From: Dysosmobacter sp. HCP28S3_G4
Lineage (GTDB): Bacteria > Bacillota > Clostridia > Oscillospirales > Oscillospiraceae
NCBI RefSeq assembly: GCF_052065175.1
Contig: NZ_JBQHUP010000046.1
Coordinates: forward strand, 1 to 21,279
Direction: 5' to 3'
Length of the DNA: 21,279 bases
This document shows, piece after piece, positions 1,892 through 21,154 of the stretch (positions within the stretch are counted from its first letter, which is position 1; every line of letters starts with the position of its first letter). The notes beneath the pieces were generated by a model. The model ran no database searches. It saw only the letters and a list, made by a program, of their open reading frames with translations, and was not told where the DNA came from. Both the position numbers and the translations under genes were made by a program.

Positions 1892-3388
1892 TTATTTGCT
1901 TGTCTTTCCGGCTGCCGCGGCATCCTCATAGAACAGCCGCATGTTCTCGTCCACCTTGCCGATGCCCAAGTAGCGCGCCTTGTAGTCCTTCAGCAGCTTG
2001 AAGTACTGATTGGACAGGATCAGGATCACGGCCACGTTGACGAAGGTGGGGATGGCGGAGGTAATGTCCACCAGCGTCCAGATGAAGCCCTGGTTGTCGG
2101 TCTTCACCAGATAGATGGTCCACAGCAGGCCCGGCAGAACGCGGATGGCGTAGAAGATCTTCATGATGATGGTCTTCAGCAGGCCCTCCTTCTTGTAGAG
2201 GTGCTCCAGGATGGCCAGATAGTAGGTGAACCAGCCGCCGGAGGTGGTGACGGTGAAGATCACCATGATGACTGCCAGCAGCAGGCTTCCCACGGTCCCG
2301 AAGCTGCTGGAGAAGGCGCTCAGCGCCAGGGTGCCGCCGTTGGTGCCGTCGGTCCACATGCCGCTGAGAATCACGGACAGAGCGGTGATGCTGCAGACGA
2401 CGAAGGTATCGAAGAAGACCTCGAAGGAGCCCCACAGGCCCTGCTCCACCGGATGCCGGGTCTTGGCGGAGGCGTGGATCATGGGAGAAGTGCCCCAGCC
2501 GGCCTCGTTGGAGTACACGGACCGGGCCATACCGACGCGGACCATCTGGCTGACGGCGCAGCCGGCGAAGCCGCCGACGGCCGCGGTGCCGGTGAAGGCG
2601 TTGGTGAAGATGGAAGCCACAGCGGCGGGAGCAGAGGTGATGTTGGCCAGGATCATGGCAATGCCCATCAGGATGTACAGGGCGCTCATGAAGGGGACCA
2701 GCTTGCTGAAGATGTTGGCGATCCGCTTCGTGCCGCCGCCGGTGATGACGAAGGTCAGTGCGCAGACCAGGATGCCCACGATGATGACGCCCTCGATCTT
2801 CATGCCGCCGATGGTGATGCCGTCAAAGTGGAAGGCACCAGCCACCACCTGAGAGGCGGTCAGCGTGGAGGAAGTCACGAAGAAGGTGGAGAAGATGCCG
2901 ATACCGAAGATGACAGCCGGGATCAGCCACAGCTTGCCCCAGTGGCGCTCCTCGCCGAGGCCGCGCTCCATGTAGTAAGTGGGGCCGCCGTAGTAGTCGC
3001 CCTTCTCATTTGTCCGGCGGTAGTAGCAGCCCAGGGTGACCTCCACCTGCTTCAGGATCATGCCGAGGCACGCGGTGAGCCACATCCACAGGACAGCGCC
3101 CGGGCCGCCCGCGGCCACTGCGGTGGCGACGCCGGCGATATTGCCGAAGCCCACCGTGCCGCCGATGGCGGTGGAGATGGCCTCGAAGGCGCTCAGCATA
3201 CCCTTTTCGTTCTCATTTTCCGTATCCTTCTGGAAGATCTTTCCGAAGGTACGCTTCATAATCCAGCCGAAATAGCGGAACTGGAAGAAGCCGGAACGGA
3301 CCGTAAAGTACAGTCCGGTCACGATCATGAGTACAATGAGCGGTAATCCCCAGAGAATACCGTCAAGCCAATTTAAAAAATCAATCAC
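1892..3388 (-). CDS. Sodium:alanine (AGCS) family amino-acid:cation symporter, 498 aa
   Basis: The N-terminus ILWGLPLIVLMIVTGLYFTVRSGFFQFRYF and the multi-TM body are characteristic of alanine/glycine:cation symporters. The start codon is GTG at 3388-3386, preceded by GAGGAG with a 6-nt spacer. Confidence 0.9.
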   Translation of the reverse strand: MIDFLNWLDGILWGLPLIVLMIVTGLYFTVRSGFFQFRYFGWIMKRTFGKIFQKDTENENEKGMLSAFEAISTAIGGTVGFGNIAGVATAVAAGGPGAVLWMWLTACLGMILKQVEVTLGCYYRRTNEKGDYYGGPTYYMERGLGEERHWGKLWLIPAVIFGIGIFSTFFVTSSTLTASQVVAGAFHFDGITIGGMKIEGVIIVGILVCALTFVITGGGTKRIANIFSKLVPFMSALYILMGIAMILANITSAPAAVASIFTNAFTGTAAVGGFAGCAVSQMVRVGMARSVYSNEAGWGTSPMIHASAKTRHPVEQGLWGSFEVFFDTFVVCSITALSVILSGMWTDGTNGGTLALSAFSSSFGTVGSLLLAVIMVIFTVTTSGGWFTYYLAILEHLYKKEGLLKTIIMKIFYAIRVLPGLLWTIYLVKTDNQGFIWTLVDITSAIPTFVNVAVILILSNQYFKLLKDYKARYLGIGKVDENMRLFYEDAAAAGKTSK

Positions 3389-3531: not shown

Positions 3532-3547
3532 CAATAAACAAATGAAA

Positions 3548-3710
3548 CAATAGCTCCTCCACCATGCGGTGAGAGTGCACAGCCTGTTCGACTGTACCCC
3601 AACTGCGGTGACACATGGGATGCCACCGGTTTCGGCGAAGCGTCCTTTCCCCGTCCATCTCCGGCCCCATTGCCTCCGGACAGGTACTGATACGATCCGC
3701 GCCTCTATTG
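3548..3710 (-). promoter_or_regulatory. Candidate lysine riboswitch (L-box) aptamer
   Basis: The minus strand reads CAATAGAGGCGCGG..TATCAGTACC..GGAGGCA..GGAGATGGACGGGGAAAGGACGCTTCGCCGAAACCGGTGGCA..TGTCACC..ACAGGCTGTGCACTCTCACCGCATGGTGGAGGAGCTATTG. The P1 helix closes with CAATAG/CTATTG. The blocks AGAGGCGC, AGTA, GATGGA, GGGGAAAGG, TCGCCGAA, AGGCTGT and GGAGGAGCT line up with conserved L-box blocks as I recall them from B. subtilis lysC and T. maritima. This was matched by eye only; no covariance model was run. Confidence 0.6.
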
Positions 3711-3743
3711 CTGAATCTTTATTTAATTCTTTAATTCGACAGA

Positions 3744-3772: not shown

Positions 3773-4632
3773 TAAATTTATTGGGACGGTCAGGAAAAAC
3801 TTGCCGCAGCGGGCGCGGCGGCGTCCATCTCCGGGCCGCTTCCGGCGTCGTGGATATGCAGAATATGCAGCATCAAAATATACGGATCTGCTCTGATGCG
3901 CGGCCCTCGGGTTCTTGAGAAGGCGTTTATATGTGCCTGATGTTTGCCTAGATATGAAACGCGTCTGCCGGAGACGGCAGACGCGTTCAGCAGACTTTCG
4001 CCGAATTTACGGAGTTTTTCACCGCACATCGCTGTGCAGGGAGGCAACTGAATACCTCCTACGGTTTGCCGCAGATCTGTATTTCTCCGGCGGGTGATGC
4101 GGCCTGACCGACGGTACTGCCTGCGGCGGCACTCCCCGATGCACACAGGGCCAGGATCAGCAGGGGGATCAGCAGCAGAGCCAGGAATCGTTTTACGCGC
4201 TTCCCGGTTGAACTCTTTTGACGCGGCATGTTTTTGATTGCTTCGGCCTGCCGGAACATGCGATCCAGCAGAGTCTCAATTGTTTTTCCCAGCAGCCAAT
4301 TGAGAAGCTACCTGCCCCAGTATTGAAGCACTGAGGCAACTCTTACCATATTTTTCATATGATCTGTTCAAGTTGTTGCGCCGTGGAATACGGCGGTCAC
4401 ATCATTTCTGTGTGACTCTTGCGGTCGCCCGCAAGTTCAGACTGTGCCTTCATCCGCGTGGGATGCTCCGTGTCCAGTCGTTACACCTTCCCAGAAGGGC
4501 TTGGCCCGGCGTTTTCTGCTGTGGATCCATCATAGCAGACAGGCTCCTGATTTGCAACAGGTCGGGCATCTGAAAAGGCCCGAAGGATACGGAACAGAAA
4601 TACTTCTGCCAGTGCGTTTCCGGAACCGCCGG

Positions 4633-5781
4633 TCAGTTTTTCATCGCTTTTCCCTGAGACATCAGTTCTTCGATGTACTCGTCAATAAGCCGGAGTCCCT
4701 TCGCCAAATCATGGGCATGGGAGAGCGTGATCCGGAACGAATGCGGGATATTGAAGCAGTCACCGTGGCAGACCAGCACGCCCTTCTGATCCAGCAGACC
4801 GTCGCAGAACTCCTCCGCCGGAACCTCCAGGTCGTAATGCACCAGGCAGGTGGTTGCATACGAATCGGCATATTGGTGCAGATATGGATTATCCGCGATC
4901 CATTTGTCGATGACCGCTTTATTGGCGCTGACGATCCGGCGGGATCGCTGAAAGATCTTGTCCACATGCTCCAGGGCGATGGCAAAGATCCACTCGTCAA
5001 ACACACCCCCGCAAATGGAATCATAGGAACGCCAGTTGAACAGTTTGAACCGGGTATCCGGATCGTGGCAAATGATCCAGCCCACCCGTGTACCTGCCAT
5101 GGAGTAGATCTTGGAAGAACTGGCCGTAACGATGGCCTTTTCGTAGAGGTCGGCGAAGGAGGGCATGTACTCTTCCTTCAGGCCCCGGTACATCTCGTCA
5201 CAGATGACCCATGCGTCCACGGAGCGGGCAATCTCCACGATCTCCTGCATTTCCTCCAGCGTGAGGAGAGAGCCGGTGGGGTTGTTGGGGTTGGTGAACA
5301 GGATGGCTTTCGTATTCTGATCCACCGCCCGCCGGACCTCTTCGATATCCAGACGGTATCCGGCCTCGGGCTTCAGGTCAATCTTCCGCACCTCGGCGCC
5401 GATGGACTTGGGAATGGAGAAGAACTGCTGGTAGTTGGGCATGATGGAGATCACATTGTCCCGGGACTCGATCAGGGCATAGCACACAGTACTGTTGGCT
5501 CCCGTGCCGCCGTGACAGAGGATCACTTCCTCCGGCTCTACCTTCCGGTATAGCTTTTCCGCGATGGCCCGTCTGGTCCGCGGTGTCCCATCGAACCGGC
5601 CATAGCCCAGATCCATATGCCGCAGTTCCTGAAAGAAGTCCTCCATGCTCTCGCCAGTGAGCTGGAATAGTTCCTCCACTGTCATAGGCAGCACGCAACT
5701 GCCGCCCAGATAGATTTTGTTCTTCTCACTGTCGCACGCCGGATTCAGCCAGTTTTCCAGGGTGAAATCATCAATCTTCAT
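4633..5781 (-). CDS. PLP-dependent aminotransferase, class I/II fold, 382 aa
   Basis: Carries the NPNNPTG motif (FTNPNNPTGSLL) and the PLP-lysine motif SSSKIYSMAGTRVGW. The RBS is AAAGGAG with a 6-nt spacer before the ATG at 5781. Only 36 nt separate it from the upstream OCD-family gene, so co-transcription is likely. Confidence 0.85.
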   Translation of the reverse strand: MKIDDFTLENWLNPACDSEKNKIYLGGSCVLPMTVEELFQLTGESMEDFFQELRHMDLGYGRFDGTPRTRRAIAEKLYRKVEPEEVILCHGGTGANSTVCYALIESRDNVISIMPNYQQFFSIPKSIGAEVRKIDLKPEAGYRLDIEEVRRAVDQNTKAILFTNPNNPTGSLLTLEEMQEIVEIARSVDAWVICDEMYRGLKEEYMPSFADLYEKAIVTASSSKIYSMAGTRVGWIICHDPDTRFKLFNWRSYDSICGGVFDEWIFAIALEHVDKIFQRSRRIVSANKAVIDKWIADNPYLHQYADSYATTCLVHYDLEVPAEEFCDGLLDQKGVLVCHGDCFNIPHSFRITLSHAHDLAKGLRLIDEYIEELMSQGKAMKN

Positions 5782-5817
5782 ATTACGCTCCTTTCCGCAC
5801 CTCAGCCTGGGCCGTTG

Positions 5818-6828
5818 TTATAGGTCAATGGCGTGGGCCGGATCGTCCCCTGCCCCTTCAACGACCATCTTCGCCACCGCCAGATCCAGCAGCGCCAGAC
5901 CCGTGGCGTCAAATACCGTAATCTCCCGGTCACTCCTGCGGCCGGGCTTCGTTCCCAGCAGCACCTCACCGATCTGACCGATGATGCTCGCCCGGGTGAT
6001 GAAGCCGCCTTTCACAGCAAGCTCGCACTCACCGGCGTTGACGCACTGGTCCACATCATCCACATAGATCGCAGCATCCCGCAGAATGGCGGGGTCGATC
6101 TCCTCCTTGCCGGGCATATCTGCGCCAATGCAGGAGAAATGGGTGCCGGGTCTGACCCATTCCCGTTTGATGACAGGAGCGGTAGCCCGGGTGATGGTGA
6201 TGATGATGTCGCTGTTGCCGACGGCTGCGGTCAGGTCTTCCACAGGGAGAAACTCCACGCCGGAGGCGTCAATGCCGAAGCCGTCCCTCAGACGGCCGGG
6301 TGCTTTCTCCGCGTAGACTGCCGCAGCAGACGGATGGATGGGCTCGGCACAGTACACTTTTTTGATCTGCGGCAGAGCGGTCAGGGCCGCGGCGATCATA
6401 AATATGGACTGACGTCCGGTCCCCAGGACCAGCAGCGTCTCACTGTCCCGGCGCGCCAGAGCACGGGCGGCCACCGCTGCGGCGGAGCCGGTACGCATGG
6501 AGGTGATATACGAGGCGTCCATGATCCCCAGCGGCAGCCCCGTTTTCCCGTCCATGGCCACAAGGATGCCGCTGAATGGAGGCAGCCCCAGCTGTTCATT
6601 CTGTGGGAATGTTGCCAGTGCCTTCAGGCCGTATACCTCACTTCCGCGGTCATAGCCGGAGCGGATATCCATGACGCCGCCGCGATCCTCAAAGTGGTGG
6701 GTCACAGTAGGCCAGACAACGGTCTCCCCCCGTGCCTTGGAACGATAAACGCCCTCCACAGCTTCGATCACCTCCGGCAGCCGGAGTCTCTGTTCGAGAG
6801 CAGCGCGGTTATAGAAACTGACTTTCAT
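5818..6828 (-). CDS. Ornithine cyclodeaminase / mu-crystallin family NAD(P)-dependent enzyme, 336 aa
   Basis: ORF 5818..6924 trimmed to the ATG at 6828 (MKVSFYNRAAL...), which is preceded by GGGAGGAG with a 5-nt spacer. The family signature YITSMRTGSAAAVAARALA and the Rossmann motif LLVLGTGRQS are both present. Confidence 0.85.
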   Translation of the reverse strand: MKVSFYNRAALEQRLRLPEVIEAVEGVYRSKARGETVVWPTVTHHFEDRGGVMDIRSGYDRGSEVYGLKALATFPQNEQLGLPPFSGILVAMDGKTGLPLGIMDASYITSMRTGSAAAVAARALARRDSETLLVLGTGRQSIFMIAAALTALPQIKKVYCAEPIHPSAAAVYAEKAPGRLRDGFGIDASGVEFLPVEDLTAAVGNSDIIITITRATAPVIKREWVRPGTHFSCIGADMPGKEEIDPAILRDAAIYVDDVDQCVNAGECELAVKGGFITRASIIGQIGEVLLGTKPGRRSDREITVFDATGLALLDLAVAKMVVEGAGDDPAHAIDL

Positions 6829-7052
6829 AACGACTCCTCCCTGTTGAAAAAGATTAAGCGCACAGGTTTGTTTGCAATCAGGATATCGTTTTGATACTCC
6901 AACTGCAACGGATATTTTTAGCACAGACGATAAAAGTATAGAAATTCAAATTAACGGGATTTTTTATTATTCAAACATCGAGTCCGTCAATGAATCCTTG
7001 ATGGGTGATTAGTCGCTTACATTCAATGCAGGTTATCGTTCCCTGTCCGCAT

Positions 7053-9863
7053 TCACTTTCCGGAGAGACTGCGCCTGCCCGCCGCAGCCTGCCGCTTCAG
7101 CTGCTCTTCATATTTCGAGACCAGCTTTTCCTTCTGCTCTTTCAGATACGCCTTCTCCTCCTCGCTGTACTCTTTGCAGTCGATCGCCGCCGCCTGAATG
7201 ATCTTCAGATCTTCCCGATTCAGGTCGCACCATCCCCGGCTCTCATAAAAGCAGTACAGGATCGGAAAGTCCAGAATCCGGAAGCGGATGGCTTTCTTCT
7301 TTTTGGACTGGAAGCGGTCAAGGCGGGCTTTCCGCGCTTTCGGCCACGGTGCGTTCTCCACGTCCTTGTATTGATGCGGTTTCCCTTGCACATCCCCAAA
7401 ATAGGCGATCGTCCATGAGCGGTGCACCAGATCCGCCTCGGAGCCGGGAATCAGCGTCTTTGCGTATTCCAGTGCGATCCTGGAGGGGCCTGTCAGAACC
7501 GCGCCATACGCCAGGTCCAGCTTCAAATAAGGGTCCCGCTCACATTCGTAAGCCTTCTCCACAAACTCTGGAATGTCCTTTGACAGCATGGGAAGCCTGG
7601 TCACAAAATAGAGCAGCTCATTTTTCAGGGAGAACAGCCCCTCTCCGGACAAGTTATCCAGAAGACTCCGCGTCTCGGCGTCCAGGCTCGACTCGTCCGG
7701 CCGGACCGTGTACAGATAGATGTCCATCAGGTTCTTTTGGAGCCTGCGCAGTTCTTCCTCGTCCCGGATGGTACTGATGGCTCCCCGCACATAGTCGGTG
7801 ATATCATTTCGCAGCGTCTGCCGCAATACACTGACCACCGCCGCGCCGCCTTGCTGGAATGCGGTGAAGACGCTCTCGGCGTAGAAATAGGCACAGAGGC
7901 TGCGGTGATAAAACCCGGTAGCCGTCTTCGCTCCGTCTTCGGAAAATCCGGAGAATGTCAGCAAGCCTGTAATGGCAGTATCCTGATATCGGACGCTGCA
8001 GCACGGCCCATAGTAGAGCTCCTGCGCAATTCCCTGCAACGCATCCATGATCTTATCGTCCGTCATACAGCTTGTCTTCCGGGCCCGCTCCTTTTTCAGC
8101 CAGCAGCGGAAGAACGAGTGGTACAACAGATAGAGCGGCTGATCCGCCGTGACCAGGCTCTGGACAACGCCGCCGGTCAGTCCGTCATTTTCCAGAAGAT
8201 AGATCAGCAGCGTCAGCTGGAACGGCGTCTCCGTAAAGCCGGTCATCGCCAGGTTTACGTCCATTGCCTTGTTGAAATCCTCCAAAAGCTTTTCATTCCG
8301 GGTCTGCTTGGCATAGTTCCTGGCATATCGCTCCGCCATACGGAAATCCCACTTTTGCAAGGTTATGACATTTTCAATATAGCGGCTCAGGTCCGGGGAT
8401 TCCTGGTGGTAATAGTGCTCCGTCCGCCAGCCGAACCAAACTGTCGTGTTGGAGCCCGGTTCCGACAGTCTGGAGAGCAGCTTCGGCAGGCCGTCAAAGA
8501 ACCTGGTATCGCTCACCTCATCCATGCCGTCCAGCAGGATGATCCGATGCTGTGAGGGCCTGGCCTCTCCCCGCAGATAGCCGGCGACGCACCGTTCGTA
8601 GGGGGTCATCTCTTCCCTTTGCAGGGCGGAGGCGTGGAGGTACAAAAATTCCCGAGACTGGTTCTCAAAGAGATACAGGTATTTCAAAAGAGTCGTCTTT
8701 CCGAAGCCGGCGTCGCCGGAGATCACGATGTGCTTGTTCCGATACTGCACCCGGAGGCTGCGGTAAGGGATGCTCCTTTTGACCTTTTGACCTCTCAGGT
8801 TGGGCGTGATGAACAGTTTGGGAAACAGTCCCCGGAAGGACGCGCTCTGCTTCATCCACGGAAGGAGGAGATCGTTTTTCAGCAGTTCCTGGTTTTCCGT
8901 GACCATTTTTCCGGTCAGGCGGACACGGGTGGGCAGAGCGGTTTTTTCGCGGATGCTGTCGTTAAACTGTCCATACTCGCTCCAGCCTGTTTTGGCGCCG
9001 AACTTGCCGTCCCACTGGTATGCGGTATATGTCTGTGTCCGGGTGTCGCCATAGAGGAACGCCGCCTGGGCGCCGGTTTCCTGCTTCAGGCACCCCATGG
9101 TGATCTCCAGGTGATTGCCGACGGAACGCCACCAGACGTTGTGGGCGTCTCCGCAAAGATACAGGCGCACAGGATAGTCTTGGAAGATGCTCTCTACTGC
9201 CTGCCGTTCCTCCGGCGACAGATACTCCAGGGCGTGGTGGGCCAGTACGATGATGGGACATTGGGGATGTTGCGCTTTGATCTCCTCCAGCAAGCAGGCC
9301 AATTCGTTGTTGCCGATAATCAGCTCGCCCCGGCTGCTATCACTGACGTGCATGACGGCAGTGTTCAAGGTCAGCAGGATCATATTCCCAACCACTTCGT
9401 ACTGGTGGAGCGGCTGGTCCTTCCACGGATCCTTCGCTCCATACAGCCTGCCGCAGACCGTGTAAAAGAATGAGAACTCTGATTTCAGGAACTTCAGATC
9501 CTCAGTGGAAAAGGTGCCTTTCGCATAGTCATACGCTTTTTGGATCTTCTCATACCGTTCCGCCGCAGCTCCTTCGCTGCGCCTGCGGTCATGGTTCCCC
9601 GGCGCCAGATGGATATGTTCCGCCTCTGTGATCCCGGCGGCTTCCGCGATCTTCCAAATGTACTCCACCGCATTTGCGGCCGTCTCCTCCTCGGGCGCAT
9701 CCTTTTGAAAGAAGGCATGGCGGTAATCTCCGGTGACGAACAGCTCGTCCGCCTCCAGTTTGTTTTTCCGGATAAACTCCGGCAGATAGTTCCGGAGGTT
9801 CCGTGCGGAACGCCCGTCCCCTTCCGGATTGTAATGGATATCTGATATGTGCAAAAACCTCAT
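7053..9863 (-). CDS. Fusion protein of 936 aa: N-terminal calcineurin-like metallophosphoesterase, NACHT/STAND P-loop NTPase, and an unassigned C-terminal domain. Candidate NLR-like defence protein.
   Basis: The start was chosen at the ATG at 9863 (MRFLHISDIHY) because GGAGGG lies 6 nt upstream; the 71-codon extension in the ORF track has no RBS. MPE motifs I-V are present: SDIH (res 7-10), GDYRH (45-49), GNHD (89-92), AHH (208-210), GDAH (238-241). NACHT features are Walker A GDAGFGKT (res 383-390, nt 8694-8717), Walker B IILLDGMDEV (res 441-450, nt 8514-8543, with the DGxDE signature), a downstream WRTEH sensor-like arginine, and a TPFQLTLLIYL helix. Confidence 0.85.
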   Translation of the reverse strand: MRFLHISDIHYNPEGDGRSARNLRNYLPEFIRKNKLEADELFVTGDYRHAFFQKDAPEEETAANAVEYIWKIAEAAGITEAEHIHLAPGNHDRRRSEGAAAERYEKIQKAYDYAKGTFSTEDLKFLKSEFSFFYTVCGRLYGAKDPWKDQPLHQYEVVGNMILLTLNTAVMHVSDSSRGELIIGNNELACLLEEIKAQHPQCPIIVLAHHALEYLSPEERQAVESIFQDYPVRLYLCGDAHNVWWRSVGNHLEITMGCLKQETGAQAAFLYGDTRTQTYTAYQWDGKFGAKTGWSEYGQFNDSIREKTALPTRVRLTGKMVTENQELLKNDLLLPWMKQSASFRGLFPKLFITPNLRGQKVKRSIPYRSLRVQYRNKHIVISGDAGFGKTTLLKYLYLFENQSREFLYLHASALQREEMTPYERCVAGYLRGEARPSQHRIILLDGMDEVSDTRFFDGLPKLLSRLSEPGSNTTVWFGWRTEHYYHQESPDLSRYIENVITLQKWDFRMAERYARNYAKQTRNEKLLEDFNKAMDVNLAMTGFTETPFQLTLLIYLLENDGLTGGVVQSLVTADQPLYLLYHSFFRCWLKKERARKTSCMTDDKIMDALQGIAQELYYGPCCSVRYQDTAITGLLTFSGFSEDGAKTATGFYHRSLCAYFYAESVFTAFQQGGAAVVSVLRQTLRNDITDYVRGAISTIRDEEELRRLQKNLMDIYLYTVRPDESSLDAETRSLLDNLSGEGLFSLKNELLYFVTRLPMLSKDIPEFVEKAYECERDPYLKLDLAYGAVLTGPSRIALEYAKTLIPGSEADLVHRSWTIAYFGDVQGKPHQYKDVENAPWPKARKARLDRFQSKKKKAIRFRILDFPILYCFYESRGWCDLNREDLKIIQAAAIDCKEYSEEEKAYLKEQKEKLVSKYEEQLKRQAAAGRRSLSGK

Positions 9864-10274
9864 AGCCATCCCTCCCACACAGGAAATACACACCGTCCGG
9901 ACTGGCCGCACAAAATTCAAATGCCCAGTCGCTCTCTGGGGACAGTTTATCACAAAATTTTCCTCAATAAAAGGTACAGATTCATATGAGGGAGTATTCT
10001 GTTTCCAGATAGATTTTCTTTCGGTCTGCGTGCAGCAGCCTGATTGCTTACCTGTAATTGCAATGCGTCTCCTCATAGACTAGCACAGATATAGGTACGA
10101 GTCATTACATTACCATATCCAACCATGCGCAGATGGCCAGCTTTGTGGCACTGAACAGAACCTTCTATAACAGTCTCAGTGATGATGAGGACAAGGCCAT
10201 TCTGGACGCATCAAGGGCGAGGGCTTTTCTTCAGACTCGCCGCTCTGCGGAATGGTCCTTCCTCGAAAAAGCAC

Positions 10275-10303
10275 TTGTGTTTTTCCACAGAATGGCGTAT
10301 AAT
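10275..10303 (+). promoter_or_regulatory. Sigma-A type promoter for the thiC leader
   Basis: TTGTGT (10275-10280), a 17-nt spacer, then consensus TATAAT (10298-10303). It lies about 30 nt upstream of the TPP riboswitch. Confidence 0.55.
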
Positions 10304-10329
10304 CACTTTGCCAAGGAGAATAAAATGCA

Positions 10330-10415
10330 GAAAAAGGGAGCTCGCAAACGGGCTGAGAGGAAGCTGTGCGCTTCGACCTGTGACCTGATTTGGGTAATGC
10401 CAACGTAGGGAGATA
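10330..10415 (+). promoter_or_regulatory. TPP (THI-box) riboswitch
   Basis: AGGGAGCTCGCAAACGGGCTGAGAGGAAGCTGTGCGCTTCGACCTGTGACCTGATTTGGGTAATGCCAACGTAGGGAG contains the hallmark THI-box blocks GCTGAGA, ACCTGAT.TGG.TAATGCCA.CGTAGGGA. It is located upstream of thiC, the classic regulated gene. Confidence 0.8.
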
Positions 10416-10431
10416 AAGCACCGGTATCAAA

Positions 10432-10484
10432 TGCCGTGGGAATGTCTTTCCTCACCCTGCGAAAGACGCCCACGGCATTTTTCT
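10432..10484 (+). terminator. Intrinsic terminator (expression platform of the TPP riboswitch)
   Basis: TGCCGTGGG (10432-10440) pairs with CCCACGGCA (10469-10477). An inner extension pairs GTCTTTC (10444-10450) with GAAAGAC (10461-10467). The stem is followed by TTTTTCT. Confidence 0.75.
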
Positions 10485-10771
10485 ATCATGCGGCCCGCGG
10501 AGGTCCTGCGTTTCTTCTCCGGCCGCGGTGGATCGGGGGCACCACCTTCCGCCGCGCAAGAAAATTCCATTCTGTGCAGAAAAGGAGAACTCTATGAGAA
10601 CAGCATGGAACAGCGCCGGGATATCCGGTGCAGGCGCCGGGAATCTGACAGACAGCAGAAGGCCCCACAGAATGGCCGCTGCCCAGGCACCTCCCGGCGC
10701 TGCGTCCAGGCTCCTGTGGGAGCCGCGGGACACGACAACAGCGAATCAGAAAACTTTGGGAGGAATTTGAA

Positions 10772-12079
10772 ATGGATCGTACTTACACCACACAGATGGA
10801 CGCCGCCCGCAGGGGCATCGTCACGCCGGAACTGGAGACCGTGGCCAAAAAGGAACGGATGACCGCCCAGGAGCTGCTGCCCCTGGTGGCATCGGGCAAG
10901 GTGGTCATCCCCGCCAACCGCCTGCATACCTGCCTGGACCCCGAGGGCATCGGCTCCATGCTCCGCACCAAGATCAATGTCAACCTGGGCGTCTCCCGGG
11001 ACTGCAAGGACTACAACGTGGAGATGCAGAAGGTGCTCTCCGCCGTGAACATGGGGGCGGAGGCCATCATGGACCTGTCCAGCCACGGCGACACCGGCCC
11101 CTTCCGCCGGAAGCTCACCGCGGAGTGTCCGGTGATGATCGGCACTGTGCCGGTCTATGACAGCGTCATCCACTATCAGCGGGATCTGGACACCCTGACC
11201 GCCAAAGACTTCATCGACGTGGTCCGCCTGCACGCCCAGGAGGGTGTGGACTTCGTCACACTCCACTGCGGCATCACCCGCAAGACCATTGACCAGATCC
11301 GCAAGCACAAGCGGAAGATGAATATCGTCTCCCGGGGCGGCTCCCTGGTGTTCGCCTGGATGTGCATGACCGGCGAGGAAAATCCCTTCTACGAGTATTA
11401 CGACGAGATCCTGGACATCTGCCGGGAGTACGACGTGACCATCTCCCTGGGCGACGCCTGCCGTCCCGGCTGTCTGGCCGACGCCACCGACGTGTGCCAG
11501 ATCGAGGAGCTGGTGCGTCTGGGCGAGCTGACCAAGCGGGCCTGGGAGAAGGACGTCCAAGTGATGGTGGAGGGTCCCGGCCATGTGCCCATGGACCAGA
11601 TCGCCGCCAACATGAAGGTGCAGCAGACCATCTGCATGGGCGCCCCCTTCTATGTTCTGGGCCCCCTGGTGACGGACATCGCCCCCGGCTACGACCACAT
11701 CACCGCCGCTATCGGCGGCGCCATGGCCGCCATGAACGGTGCCGCGTTCCTCTGCTATGTGACGCCGGCGGAGCATCTGGCCCTCCCCAATCTGGACGAC
11801 GTGAAGCAGGGCATCATCGCCAGCAAGATCGCCGCCCACGCCGCCGACATCGCCAAGGGCGTCCGGGGCGCCCGTGAGATTGATGACAAGATGGGCGACG
11901 CCCGCCGCGCCCTGGACTGGGATGCCCAGTGGAAGTGCGCCCTGGACCCGGAGACGGCCAAAGCCATCCGGGATGACCGCTCCCCGGAACACGACGACAC
12001 CTGCTCCATGTGCGGCAAGTTCTGCGCGGTGCGCAGCATGAACAAGGCCCTCAACGGCGAACACATCGACATTCTGTGA
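10772..12079 (+). CDS. thiC: Phosphomethylpyrimidine synthase ThiC (radical-SAM HMP-P synthase), 435 aa
   Basis: Full-length short-form ThiC ([22 protein letters not shown]...) with the C-terminal Fe-S cluster motif CSMCGKFC. The RBS is GGAGG with an 8-nt spacer, and a TPP riboswitch lies upstream. Confidence 0.95.
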
Positions 12080-12121
12080 CGGCCCGGGGGTGTTCCCCCG
12101 AGGCCTGTGAGAAAACAACCG

Positions 12122-12160
12122 TGCCGGGATGCAGCGTTGACTGCATCCCGGCATTTTTAT
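12122..12160. terminator. Bidirectional intrinsic terminator between the convergent thiC and YibE/F-like genes
   Basis: A 13-bp stem TGCCGGGATGCAG (12122-12134) / CTGCATCCCGGCA (12141-12153) with loop CGTTGA. It is followed by TTTTTAT on the plus strand and by GGTTGTTTTCT on the minus strand. Confidence 0.8.
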
Positions 12161-12184
12161 GGAAACGTCTTCCCTTCCGGACCG

Positions 12185-13480
12185 TCACGCCGTCCGGCGA
12201 GTCAGCAGAAGACCGCTGGTGATGGCCGTCAGGGGCGCCACCGTCACCAGGCCGAAGGAGCCCACGATGGTGTGGACGATCTCCGCTGCCACATACTTGT
12301 AGTTCAGGATGAACTCCACCGGCGTGCCCTGGGCCATGAACACCATCAGCAGGGCGATGTAGCTGCCGGAATAGGCCAGCAGCAGCGTGGTGGTCGTGGA
12401 ACCGCAGGCGGCCCGGCCCACGGCGAAGCCCGAGGAGACGGCCTCTCGGGCGCCGATGTCCGGCCGCTTCTGCACCACCTCGTACACGGCGGAGCAGATG
12501 TCCACCGACAGGTCCATCACCGCGCCGGAGGAGCCGAGAAAGATGGAGGCCATGAAGATCTGCGTCAGGTCCAGATTCTGATATCCGGCGTACAGCAGGC
12601 TCTCGCTGGACTCCATGACGGCGCCGTGGATGCGGAACAGGTTCGTGAACACCACGCCCAGCACCGCCGTGACGGCGATGCCCAGAGCCGCGCCAGAGGT
12701 GGCGGCCAGGCACCGGCGGTCAAAGCCGTAGATCAGGCTGAGGATCAGCGCCGTCAGCGCCAGCACCATGGCAAGAGCCAGCCATACCGGGTTCCAGCCC
12801 CGCAGCAGACAGGGCACCAGCACCTTCCACATCAGCAGAATGGTGTCCACGAAGGAGAGGATTGCCCGGACGCCGGTCCATCCGGCAAACAGCACCAGCT
12901 GCAGCAAAAACAGTCCCGCCAGAAGCGCCTCCTTGTCCAGCCGGTAGTGGTCGGTCATGGAGACCACGGAGATGACGCCTCCGCTGTGGCTGACGGTGAC
13001 AAAGGCGATGTCGCCGGGGGCAAACAACTTGTCCTGGGCCAGGGAGCCGTTGAGCCGGTTGACGGCCTCCACCGTCTGTCCCTCAAAATGGCCGCCCAGC
13101 AGCTTCACCGTGCACCGCTGTTCGCCGGTGCGGATCAACCCGGTGTCCACGATGTCGCTCTCGTCGGTGGCCAGCACCTCCGCCCGGACACGGTCGGCGT
13201 TCTGATAGGTCAGCCTGCCCTCAAAACCCGTGGGCAGCATCAGTTCCTCTGCGGTCATGTGGGTCTTGTTGTCCCGCATTTCTCTGGACAGTAGCATCTG
13301 GTCCGCCAGGGAGCCCACCCGCACCATGAAAAACTCGTCCAGATTGCTCTGGTAGATGGAGGCGAAAGTCAGCCGCTCACACAGCGGCACGCTTTCGCTC
13401 TCCGCCTCCTCCAACACCCGTTCATTGAATTTCAGCCAGGACAGTTCCCGGTTCAAATAGGTATTCATCCCTCGCCCCAC
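12185..13480 (-). CDS. Chimeric ORF: polyphosphate kinase 1 (PPK1) N-terminal ~80 aa fused in frame to a YibE/F-family multipass membrane protein
   Basis: Residues ~7-80 ([51 protein letters not shown]...[10 protein letters not shown]) align almost block for block with the PPK1 N-terminus (E. coli: [51 protein letters not shown]). From about residue 85 onward the sequence is a typical YibE/F protein: a soluble beta-rich segment ending ...MTDHYR followed by about 7 TM helices. The junction lies at roughly nt 13225-13250. Confidence 0.7.
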
Positions 13481-15726: not shown

Positions 15727-16581
15727 ATGGACATCAGAGTCAAGAAACAGCTGCCTCTCGCGCTGCTGGCCGCTGTACTCTGCTTTCTGATTGTCTGCCC
15801 TTTGATCATGATATTTGCCAAGGCGGTCATTGCGGATGGCCGCCTTGACTTCTATTCGGCGTGGCAGACTCTGACAGAGAGCGAAAACGCGGTGATGATC
15901 GGCAATTCCCTTCTGCTGGGCGTTTTGGTGGTGCTCCTCTCCACGGCCATCGCCGCGCCCCTGGCCTATCTCTTCTCCCGGACCTGCTTTGCCCGGTACC
16001 GGGCCTTTGATATCATCTTCATGATCCCCTTTATGACGCCGCCCTATATCGCCTCCATGGGCTGGATCTTATTCATGCAGAAGCGGGTCACCGGCGTCTG
16101 GAACAGCGGCCTGGATGGCGCAACCCTGACCCTGGCTGCCTTCGAGACCGGCATTGGCTCTCTCGGCCGGATCATTCTGGCCCTCGGCGTGTTCCTGTTC
16201 GGCCTGACCACCTCCAGCGGCGTCTATGCCCAGATTGAGGTCGTCGTCCGTTACCTGGTGGGCAACTCCCCCCTGAAGGATGCGATTCTGAAGTTCTATA
16301 AGTGGACCTATCCCATTCCGAGCCTGGGCATGGTCGTGATCGCCGTCTATTACGGCTTCCCCGGCGCGACGCTGTGGCTCTTCTCCGACGCATCCACAGC
16401 ACTTCCCATCTTTGCCAATATCATCACACTGTTCATTCTGACTCCGCGCTTCCTCGCCCTGATCAAGGACTACATGGCGAGATACCGGAAAGTCGGAACT
16501 GTCGATCCGGATTTCCCGATCTTCTTCGAGAAAGATCAGGATGCCGAGGTCAAGGCCCGGGCGGAGTGGGCCAACCAGTAA
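15727..16581 (+). pseudogene. Chimeric ORF: N-terminal ~118 aa of the ABC importer permease fused in frame to the C-terminal ~165 aa of an AGCS sodium:alanine symporter
   Basis: Residues 1-~118 (…NSLLLGVLVVLLSTAIAAPLAYLFSRT…FMIPFMTPPYIASMGWILF) are a typical FbpB/ThiP-type permease N-terminus; such permeases normally run ~500+ aa. From VTGVWNSGLDGATLTLAAF... to the end, the sequence is colinear with the C-terminus of the intact symporter at 1892-3388 (compare SGMWTDGTNGGTLALSAF…LILSNQYFKLLKDYKARYLGIGKVD with …FILTPRFLALIKDYMARYRKVGTVD). The junction lies at about nt 16075-16090. Confidence 0.65.
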
Positions 16582-17586: not shown

Positions 17587-17647
17587 TTGTTTATACAATT
17601 GATACAATACCGCCTCGGGCGAAAAATGAAGAAAAGGGGTCCTAACG

Positions 17648-21154
<3,507 letters not shown>

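Follow-up and report, generated by a model that had tools for sequence, protein, structure and literature searches.

A metallophosphoesterase–NACHT gene and its product

The DNA analysed here, called the window, is a stretch of 21,279 nucleotides from Dysosmobacter sp. HCP28S3_G4 (contig NZ_JBQHUP010000046.1), and the subject of this study is one of its genes, which encodes a calcineurin-like metallophosphoesterase (MPE), a NACHT-type NTPase module and a C-terminal α-solenoid in a single polypeptide. We consider this protein very probably an antiphage STAND receptor with an MPE effector. An earlier note, made from the sequence without database searches, had placed an open reading frame (ORF) at 7053-9863 and left its strand unstated. 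The ORF is real, encodes 936 aa and lies on the minus strand; the interval is open on this strand only, and the plus strand is full of stops. RefSeq contains exactly this 936-aa product as WP_441033681.1, named ‘metallophosphoesterase’ and assigned to the same organism, a cultured gut isolate.

At its maximum extent the minus-strand ORF spans 10076..7053 and 1007 aa. We rejected this longer version and prefer the Met at 9863 (MRFLHISDIH...), because a Shine-Dalgarno-like sequence lies 7 nt upstream, homologues begin at this position and the RefSeq product is identical. Of the 28 full-length homologues in the alignment, nearly all share this Met as their start; one is 5′-truncated and one 17 aa longer. 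The family alignment used throughout comprises 29 full-length sequences with identities down to 42%, and the AlphaFold2 model built on it has a mean predicted local distance difference test score (pLDDT) of 87.5. The features of the gene are listed below; the coordinates of the MPE and Walker motifs were checked.

7053..9863, minus strand: complete coding sequence of the MPE–NACHT–α-solenoid gene, 936 aa plus stop (RefSeq WP_441033681.1)
9871..9875, minus strand: Shine-Dalgarno-like GGAGG upstream of the ATG at 9863 (read from the sequence)
8976..9863, minus strand: calcineurin-like MPE, a β-sandwich and the presumed effector, residues 1-296 (Pfam PF00149, Foldseek, PADLOC PDLC00736)
9834-9842, minus strand: MPE motif DxH (D8-I-H10)
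9726-9731, minus strand: MPE motif GD (G45-D46)
9588-9599, minus strand: MPE motif GNHD (G89-N90-H91-D92)
9234-9239, minus strand: MPE motif HH (H209-H210)
9141-9152, minus strand: MPE motif GDAH (G238-D239-A-H241)
8799..8975, minus strand: linker and conserved segment preceding the nucleotide-binding domain (NBD), N..LLPW...S......FP.LF..P, residues 297-355 (29-sequence alignment; TIR, SIR2 and other variants)
8349..8798, minus strand: P-loop NBD, residues 356-505 (alignment, AlphaFold2, Foldseek to NOD2, NLRC4 and NLRP3)
8694-8717, minus strand: Walker A GDAGFGKT, residues 383-390
8517-8543, minus strand: Walker B IILLDGMDE, residues 441-449
7908..8348, minus strand: helical and winged-helix-like part of the NACHT module, residues 506-652 (AlphaFold2 secondary structure, alignment, long Foldseek alignments to NLR NACHT modules)
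7056..7907, minus strand: all-helical ARM/HEAT-like α-solenoid, the presumed sensor, residues 653-936, ~284 aa (AlphaFold2 model)
7179..7427, minus strand: best-conserved segment of the protein, RSWT.AYFGDV...Y.D....W...R.AR.....K..RFR..D.P..., residues 813-895 (alignment identity)

The phosphoesterase and NACHT domains

The five MPE motifs and the Walker A and B motifs, which had been read by eye from the translation, lie at the residues then proposed, and in the 29-sequence alignment they vary little or not at all. Searches of PDB sequences, with the single sequence or with the 29-sequence profile, returned generic P-loop matches only, and structure comparison alone was informative. For the N-terminal domain, Pfam Metallophos PF00149 scored 53.7 bits against a gathering threshold of 21.5 (E 4.7e-14), and aligned residues 1-242 to profile positions 1-190 of 191; together with Foldseek matches to solved MPEs, this bears out the calcineurin-like fold that had been proposed. 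Motif V reads GDxH instead of the canonical GHxH, and the variant is invariant across the family. The di-metal site is intact. The top structural match was Bacillus subtilis YydB in the integrative YydD-YydB model (PDB 9a6c_B, E 1.5e-15, 21% identity). A search for functional literature on YydB/YydD gave nothing useful, and YydB may represent an unrecognised related system.

The NTPase satisfies both the Walker A pattern GxxxxGK[ST] and the NACHT-type Walker B pattern hhhhD[GAS]xDE. G383, G388, K389, T391, D445, D448 and E449 are invariant in this region, as are R480, which follows the strand 473-480 of the NBD, and P547 within the E[ST]PFQL motif of the helical and winged-helix part. The segment in front of the NBD travels with the NTPase module and not with the effector, for the TIR, SIR2 and other variants described below retain it. 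A NACHT domain had been placed at residues ~370-560; the NACHT-type P-loop and Walker B stand, but the module extends further on both sides, from the pre-NBD segment at residue 297 to the end of the winged-helix part at residue 652.

Family-level evidence supports the NACHT assignment. Pfam matches to the NTPase region of the window protein were all sub-threshold (NACHT PF05729 16.2 bits, gathering 26.7; nSTAND3 18.5; NPHP3_N 19.1). Of 59 proteins with the same module, however, 29 matched NACHT at E <= 1e-3 (best 8.4e-9), more than matched any other NTPase family; NPHP3_N, nSTAND5 and nSTAND1 came behind it. In Foldseek searches of the PDB the NTPase matched NOD2 (1.2e-9), NLRC4 (1.4e-9) and the NACHT of NLRP3 (7.6e-9), then NAIP, over 530-670 aligned columns. 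These NLR matches (E 1e-9 to 1e-8) rank ahead of Avs4 (8.7e-7) and of AAA+ proteins.

The C-terminal α-solenoid and its conserved segment

The earlier note had counted ~375 residues after the NACHT domain; with the longer NACHT module the true C-terminal domain shrinks to ~284 aa. Modelled alone with AlphaFold2 (residues 560-936), the C-terminal part reached a pLDDT of 91.7. In a Foldseek comparison of the C-terminal domain with the PDB nothing reached E <= 1e-3; armadillo-repeat proteins came closest. These weak ARM-repeat echoes include the NMN/NAD-sensing ARM domain of SARM1, a match (E 0.016, template modelling (TM) score ~0.25) that we set aside as too weak for use as evidence.

The mean identity to the window protein is 62% in residues 813-895, 52% in the MPE and 43% in the NBD, and a sensor that is more conserved than the motor is unusual. 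Residues 813-895 are also kept in variants that carry TIR, SIR2, PNP and other effectors. They contain many invariant Arg, Trp, Asp and Tyr residues, and residues 822-840 form a confidently modelled loop. The segment could bind a conserved cue as a ligand pocket, or it could serve as an interface for autoinhibition or oligomerisation. Because this Arg- and aromatic-rich segment is conserved above the ATPase core, and because of the ARM-repeat echoes, one can imagine a metabolite-gated bacterial NLR: an uncatalogued receptor family whose sensor reads, in place of a variable phage protein, a conserved small ligand, possibly anionic or nucleotide-derived, and whose output is a nucleotide pyrophosphatase. 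We regard this idea as speculative and improbable.

Exchange of effectors and receptors

An exhaustive HMMER search with residues 320-936 over 1.84 billion cluster representatives retrieved 285 relatives. In many of them the NACHT and sensor module begins at residue ~150-230 or at the N-terminus, and their N- and C-terminal extensions cluster into distinct classes. Pfam scans for effectors covered 59 representatives and gave the following domains, beside several domains without family assignment.

TIR_2: 8 of 59 representatives
Metallophos: 8 of 59 representatives
SIR2_2: 6 of 59 representatives
PNP_UDP_1, mostly C-terminal: 3 of 59 representatives
Mrr_cat: 2 of 59 representatives
SEFIR: 1 of 59 representatives
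GT4-conflict: 1 of 59 representatives

Siblings with other effectors (for example P0140, P0081, P0129 and P0158) align with the window protein over essentially all of residues 320-936, with E values of 1e-36 to 1e-160. They share the pre-NBD segment and the conserved C-terminal segment with it, whereas the effector domain differs. The placement of the effector is unusual in two cases: P0158 (1054 aa) carries its ‘GT4-conflict’ glycosyltransferase at the N-terminus, and in P0129, P0135, P0144 and P0174 the PNP/nucleosidase domain is shifted to the C-terminus, after the sensor.

The exchange also runs in the other direction. The first ~310 residues are found again on unlike receptors, at 32-47% identity overall and 37-47% in the Avs2, SAVED, NB-ARC+TPR and NACHT+WD40 fusions. 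Thirteen of the matches join the MPE module to NB-ARC+TPR, and others join it to other NACHT proteins or to a NACHT-like region with WD40 repeats (P0076). In P0048 and P0070 the partner is a genuine Avs2 (1019 and 1010 bits with PADLOC Avs2 models), and in P0077 of Blautia hominis it is a SAVED-like C-terminus of the CBASS type. Both halves of the window protein are interchangeable modules of defence proteins.

Compared with PADLOC 2.0 and NCBIfam 20, the NACHT and sensor module had no significant match in the window protein or in nine representatives with alternative effectors. In those nine only the effector domains were matched, besides a weak sub-threshold match to the EruA NACHT model (25-32 bits; cut-off 1000). 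What is modestly new here is the NACHT+α-solenoid receptor family, a receptor that PADLOC 2.0 and NCBIfam 20 do not recognise, together with its gut-Clostridia host and its conserved C-terminal segment.

Relation to known defence systems

The closest described system is DS-8 (DefensePredictor; Escherichia coli WP_032203427.1, 1014 aa), a single-protein metallophosphatase-NACHT system that protects E. coli against phage. Its catalytic mutants D52A and N84A and its Walker A mutant K375A lose defence, so that both domains are needed. The window protein resembles DS-8 in that one polypeptide carries a metallophosphatase at its N-terminus and a NACHT P-loop after it, and the key residues are collinear (D52, N84 and K375 in DS-8; D46, N90 and K389 in the window protein). 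The relation rests on the NCBIfam model NF053861 (DS8_antiphage), which matched with 54.7 bits and E 3.9e-15 and aligned residues 5-465 to profile positions 1-468 of 994. With nothing aligned beyond residue 465, the sensor half is either unrelated to that of DS-8 or undetectably diverged; neither the helical and winged-helix part nor the sensor half is recognisably related. The hosts differ as well, E. coli in the one case and the gut Clostridia member Dysosmobacter in the other.

With the bacterial NACHT (bNACHT) proteins that Kibby et al. described, as with Avs/AVAST proteins, the window protein shares the effector-STAND-sensor order, the NACHT-type Walker B and a fold like those of NOD2, NLRC4, NLRP3 and Avs4. 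It differs from them in its sensor, a compact (~280 aa) α-solenoid with no significant match to a solved structure. Avs models matched the P-loop region only, at scores too low to count as Avs (PADLOC Avs4 14.5 bits, E 1e-3; NCBIfam Avs4 17.1 bits, cut-off 1500).

For the MPE itself, the best PADLOC profile was PDLC00736, a model of CBASS effectors (75.9 bits); the candidate system PDC-S60, which is probably DS-8, came next. The MPE-SAVED effectors of CBASS that this model describes (for example P0077) are thus the best sequence-profile match of the domain, but they are presumably activated by a cyclic oligonucleotide bound to SAVED and not by an NTPase switch. A further match was to NCBIfam NF053862 (DS9_1, ‘anti-phage phosphoesterase’; 28.6 bits, cut-off 420, E 6e-7), over residues 2-120 only. 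It points to MisA, of the DS-9A type, and PUA-Cal, which use a probably homologous ‘conflict’ calcineurin-like MPE as a killing or depleting effector. In those proteins, however, the effector is fused to a PUA-like m6-dAMP sensor, has a HAD phosphatase partner and forms hexamers or filaments, and there is no STAND NTPase.

The earlier note had proposed an uncharacterised effector class, and on this point it has to be corrected. In the work of Kibby et al., the effectors of bacterial NACHT proteins include calcineurin-like phosphoesterases, under ‘nucleotide-signal-generating/degrading enzymes’, and such effectors on bacterial NACHT proteins have been on record since 2022-23. The effector family already has a name, Calcineurin-CE, which according to the PUA-Cal-HAD preprint was defined by Nicastro et al. 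2023; moreover, there are the DS-8 mutants, the activities of MisA and PUA-Cal, and the PADLOC 2.0 entries PDC-S60 and PDLC00736. The window protein adds a new, distant member to a kind that is known and was recently validated; it does not represent a new effector class.

Possible chemistry of the effector

Two preprints provide measured activities of related effectors. In the Metis preprint, m6dAMP-activated MisA cleaves NAD+ to nicotinamide mononucleotide (NMN) and AMP, and does not cleave ATP. The PUA-Cal-HAD preprint confirms this breakdown of NAD+ into NMN plus AMP in vitro and argues that in vivo dNDP is converted to dNMP, with collapse of the dNTP pools. This chemistry is the best lead for the activity of the window MPE. 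Hydrolysis of nucleotide phosphoanhydride bonds is suggested by homology to DS-8 and MisA, and because TIR, SIR2, PNP and SEFIR domains occupy the same slot in siblings; we give nucleotide-pool depletion about an even chance of being the chemistry.

Within the same receptor logic, the MPE might instead be a phosphodiesterase of cyclic nucleotides or cyclic oligonucleotides that destroys a signal molecule. The nearest solved enzymes in Foldseek searches of the PDB include Rv0805, a cAMP/cGMP phosphodiesterase (E 6e-8, TM score on the target up to 0.71), and SMPDL3A/B (1e-7); GpdQ (1e-7), purple acid phosphatase (8e-6) and acid sphingomyelinase were matched as well. Motif IV, VLAHHALEY, is presumably comparable to the HHPP of class III cyclic nucleotide phosphodiesterases. 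The DS-8 authors likened their effector to SMPDL3A and proposed cleavage of cyclic nucleotides, leaving the substrate open, and the heading under which Kibby et al. place calcineurin-like phosphoesterases points the same way. However, the same slot in siblings holds the cell-killing or pool-depleting domains TIR, SIR2, PNP and Mrr, no cyclase or other signal-generating partner adjoins the gene in any neighbourhood examined, and the only biochemistry on a homologous conflict MPE is cleavage of pyrophosphate bonds in NAD+ and dNDP. We therefore consider destruction of a cyclic nucleotide signal unlikely.

A nuclease that degrades phage or host nucleic acid, again under the same receptor logic, would be the other choice, and the MPE superfamily does take in the Mre11/SbcD nucleases, an option that the earlier note had raised. 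PADLOC labels PDLC00736 ‘Endonuclease’, and Mrr nucleases stand in the same slot of two siblings. The PADLOC label is an untested annotation, however, and the 50 best Foldseek matches included neither an Mre11 nor an SbcD structure, the MPE matches among them being without exception small-molecule phosphodiesterases or phosphatases; nor did SbcD/Mre11 families appear in Pfam or NCBIfam even at E <= 1. Thus an Mre11/SbcD-like nuclease is the less likely chemistry, and we hold it to be improbable. Cleavage of nucleotide phosphoanhydride bonds is the activity that we carry forward below.

Gene context and distribution

In the window the MPE-NACHT gene is monocistronic and lies between a divergent thiC leader and a co-directional operon that encodes an ornithine-cyclodeaminase-family (OCD) protein and an aminotransferase. 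Elsewhere the gene is mobile: a 70%-identical homologue from an Oscillospiraceae metagenome-assembled genome shares only the gene with the window and no flanking DNA. Directly upstream of that homologue (10001-12769 of contig L001), the interval 7055-9418 (+) holds a separate metallophosphoesterase gene, encoding 453 aa with PF00149 at E 1e-13, and after it a gene for a 329-aa protein without Pfam match; the pair may be another MPE-based two-gene system.

A survey of neighbourhoods had been proposed as a check on the defence role, and the homologues, though not the window with its metabolic neighbours, do lie near Kiwa, AbiE, restriction-modification and mobile-element genes. The evidence comes from eight neighbourhoods and is suggestive, not quantitative. 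KwaA-KwaB (Kiwa), together with a 1438-aa WD40 protein, lies immediately upstream of P0012. P0019 adjoins AbiEi/AbiEii, in one contig with two methyltransferases, an ICEA nuclease, an AAA_13 ATPase and genes for Mob/TnpV close by. P0028 borders on a type IV secretion/conjugation module (T4SS/ICE), P0025 and P0016 are in elements with serine recombinases and relaxases/Mob, and P0006 is in a GNAT/APH-rich island. No homologues were found in IMG/VR viral contigs, and a plasmid search gave two remote MPE-only matches and nothing more. The contig of P0012, from a gut metagenome (L022), carries at 3875-12826 the 1438-aa protein with two WD40 propellers, then KwaA-KwaB, then the MPE-NACHT homologue, an array that looks like a compact defence island.

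Fixed housekeeping synteny, which would have spoken for a housekeeping function, was not seen. With the neighbouring OCD protein as query, 42 loci were retrieved from metagenomes. In about 20 of these the OCD is 73-78% identical, an aminotransferase is adjacent and 3-7 kb of upstream sequence is available, and the MPE-NACHT gene is in none of these orthologous loci; only a 98%-identical locus carries it. All contigs with an identical OCD protein and upstream sequence have the gene, which is hence stable at the strain level, and its accessory status consequently rests on the more distant OCD loci. The distribution suggests that the gene is accessory and not in fixed housekeeping synteny. Among assemblies with the identical OCD (L032, L033 and L035-L037), 5 of 10 end ~25-230 nt upstream of OCD, which puts the break at, or a little beyond, the 3′ end of the MPE-NACHT gene; these breaks could reflect strain heterogeneity at the junction, or low coverage.

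It is very unlikely that the gene is non-immune, either a housekeeping or regulatory STAND NTPase that works in the manner of MalT or AfsR or a decaying gene with an MPE domain: its isolation between metabolic operons without a defence or mobile-element gene beside it, the mere RefSeq name ‘metallophosphoesterase’ and a C-terminal segment unusually conserved for a phage sensor would fit such a role, but there is no DNA-binding output domain, every catalytic and ATPase residue is intact and is retained in homologues with as little as 42% identity, each half is found recombined with bona fide defence domains, and homologues occur in variable, defence- or mobile-element-rich contexts while the gene is absent from the orthologous locus in sister lineages.

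Other features of the window

Just downstream of the OCD and aminotransferase genes, a lysine riboswitch (Rfam RF00168, 97.4 bits; 3543-3715, minus strand) lies upstream of a sodium:alanine-symporter-family gene (1892-3388, minus strand), and the riboswitch, symporter, OCD and aminotransferase may form a lysine-regulated transport and catabolism cluster. On the other side of the MPE-NACHT gene, a candidate thiamine pyrophosphate (TPP) riboswitch at 10324-10428 (plus strand; 53.4 bits, Rfam gathering 54.3) lies ~340 nt upstream of thiC (10772-12079, plus strand) and overlaps the end of a 91-aa ORF in the thiC leader (10133-10408, plus strand), which is probably spurious.

Two ORFs look chimeric. 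The first (12185-13480, minus strand) combines a polyphosphate-kinase N-terminal domain (residues 8-80) with a YibE/F membrane domain (residues 186-422). The second (15727-16581, plus strand) has ~115 initial residues without Pfam match, ABC-permease-like by eye only, and residues 117-255 that correspond to the C-terminal third of a sodium:alanine symporter. Both are present in an independent Logan assembly, and they are either genuine scars of fusion or deletion, or else an artefact common to both assemblies. Two further candidates were rejected: a long minus-strand ORF at 17642-21055 is the antisense shadow of a pyruvate:ferredoxin oxidoreductase gene, and P0053, considered as a second MPE-STAND gene of the window, is not encoded there.

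Proposed mechanism and its implications

The order of effector, switch and sensor, and with it the NLR-like antiphage logic that the earlier note had put forward, is supported by profile searches, structure prediction, domain swapping and gene context. On balance we find it probable that the protein is a stand-alone NLR-like antiphage receptor of the NACHT clade of STAND proteins, with a nucleotide-pool-depleting MPE as its output. We infer the trigger, the oligomerisation, the substrate and the protection as follows. The resting protein would be monomeric and autoinhibited. By analogy with Avs and bNACHT proteins, the C-terminal α-solenoid would recognise an infection cue, by default a conserved phage protein; the NACHT module would bind ATP through K389 and the Walker B residues D445, D448 and E449, and the protein would oligomerise; and clustering would switch on the N-terminal di-metal phosphoesterase. 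This MPE, probably of the Calcineurin-CE type, would most likely split phosphoanhydride bonds in free nucleotides, turning NAD+ into NMN plus AMP and/or (d)NDP into (d)NMP, and the metabolite pools would collapse, leading to abortive infection.

Several observations weigh against this mechanism. The Pfam NACHT score of the window protein is below gathering, and the 54.7 bits with the DS-8 model are far below its equivalog cut-off of 790, with a match that ends at residue 465. The match to the MisA-type model spans only motifs I-III. The substrate of the related effectors is itself disputed, NAD+ being favoured by the Metis work, dNTP/dNDP by the PUA-Cal-HAD work and cyclic nucleotides by the DS-8 authors. 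There are no defence or mobile-element genes within 7-11 kb of the gene in the window, where the neighbours (OCD, aminotransferase, thiC) are metabolic, and the context evidence from homologues is anecdotal and comes with no background statistics.

Both the design principle and the effector class have been published before; the present protein is an incremental and not a conceptual addition. If it is protective, it would extend the MPE (Calcineurin-CE) effector class, tested so far in E. coli systems only, to a STAND receptor of gut Clostridia, a group in which, to our knowledge, almost no defence systems have been tested. It would also be a clean single-protein system for asking which substrate is hydrolysed in vivo, NAD+, dNDP/dNTP or cyclic nucleotides, and its siblings, with TIR, SIR2 and PNP effectors on the same sensor, form a natural comparison set.

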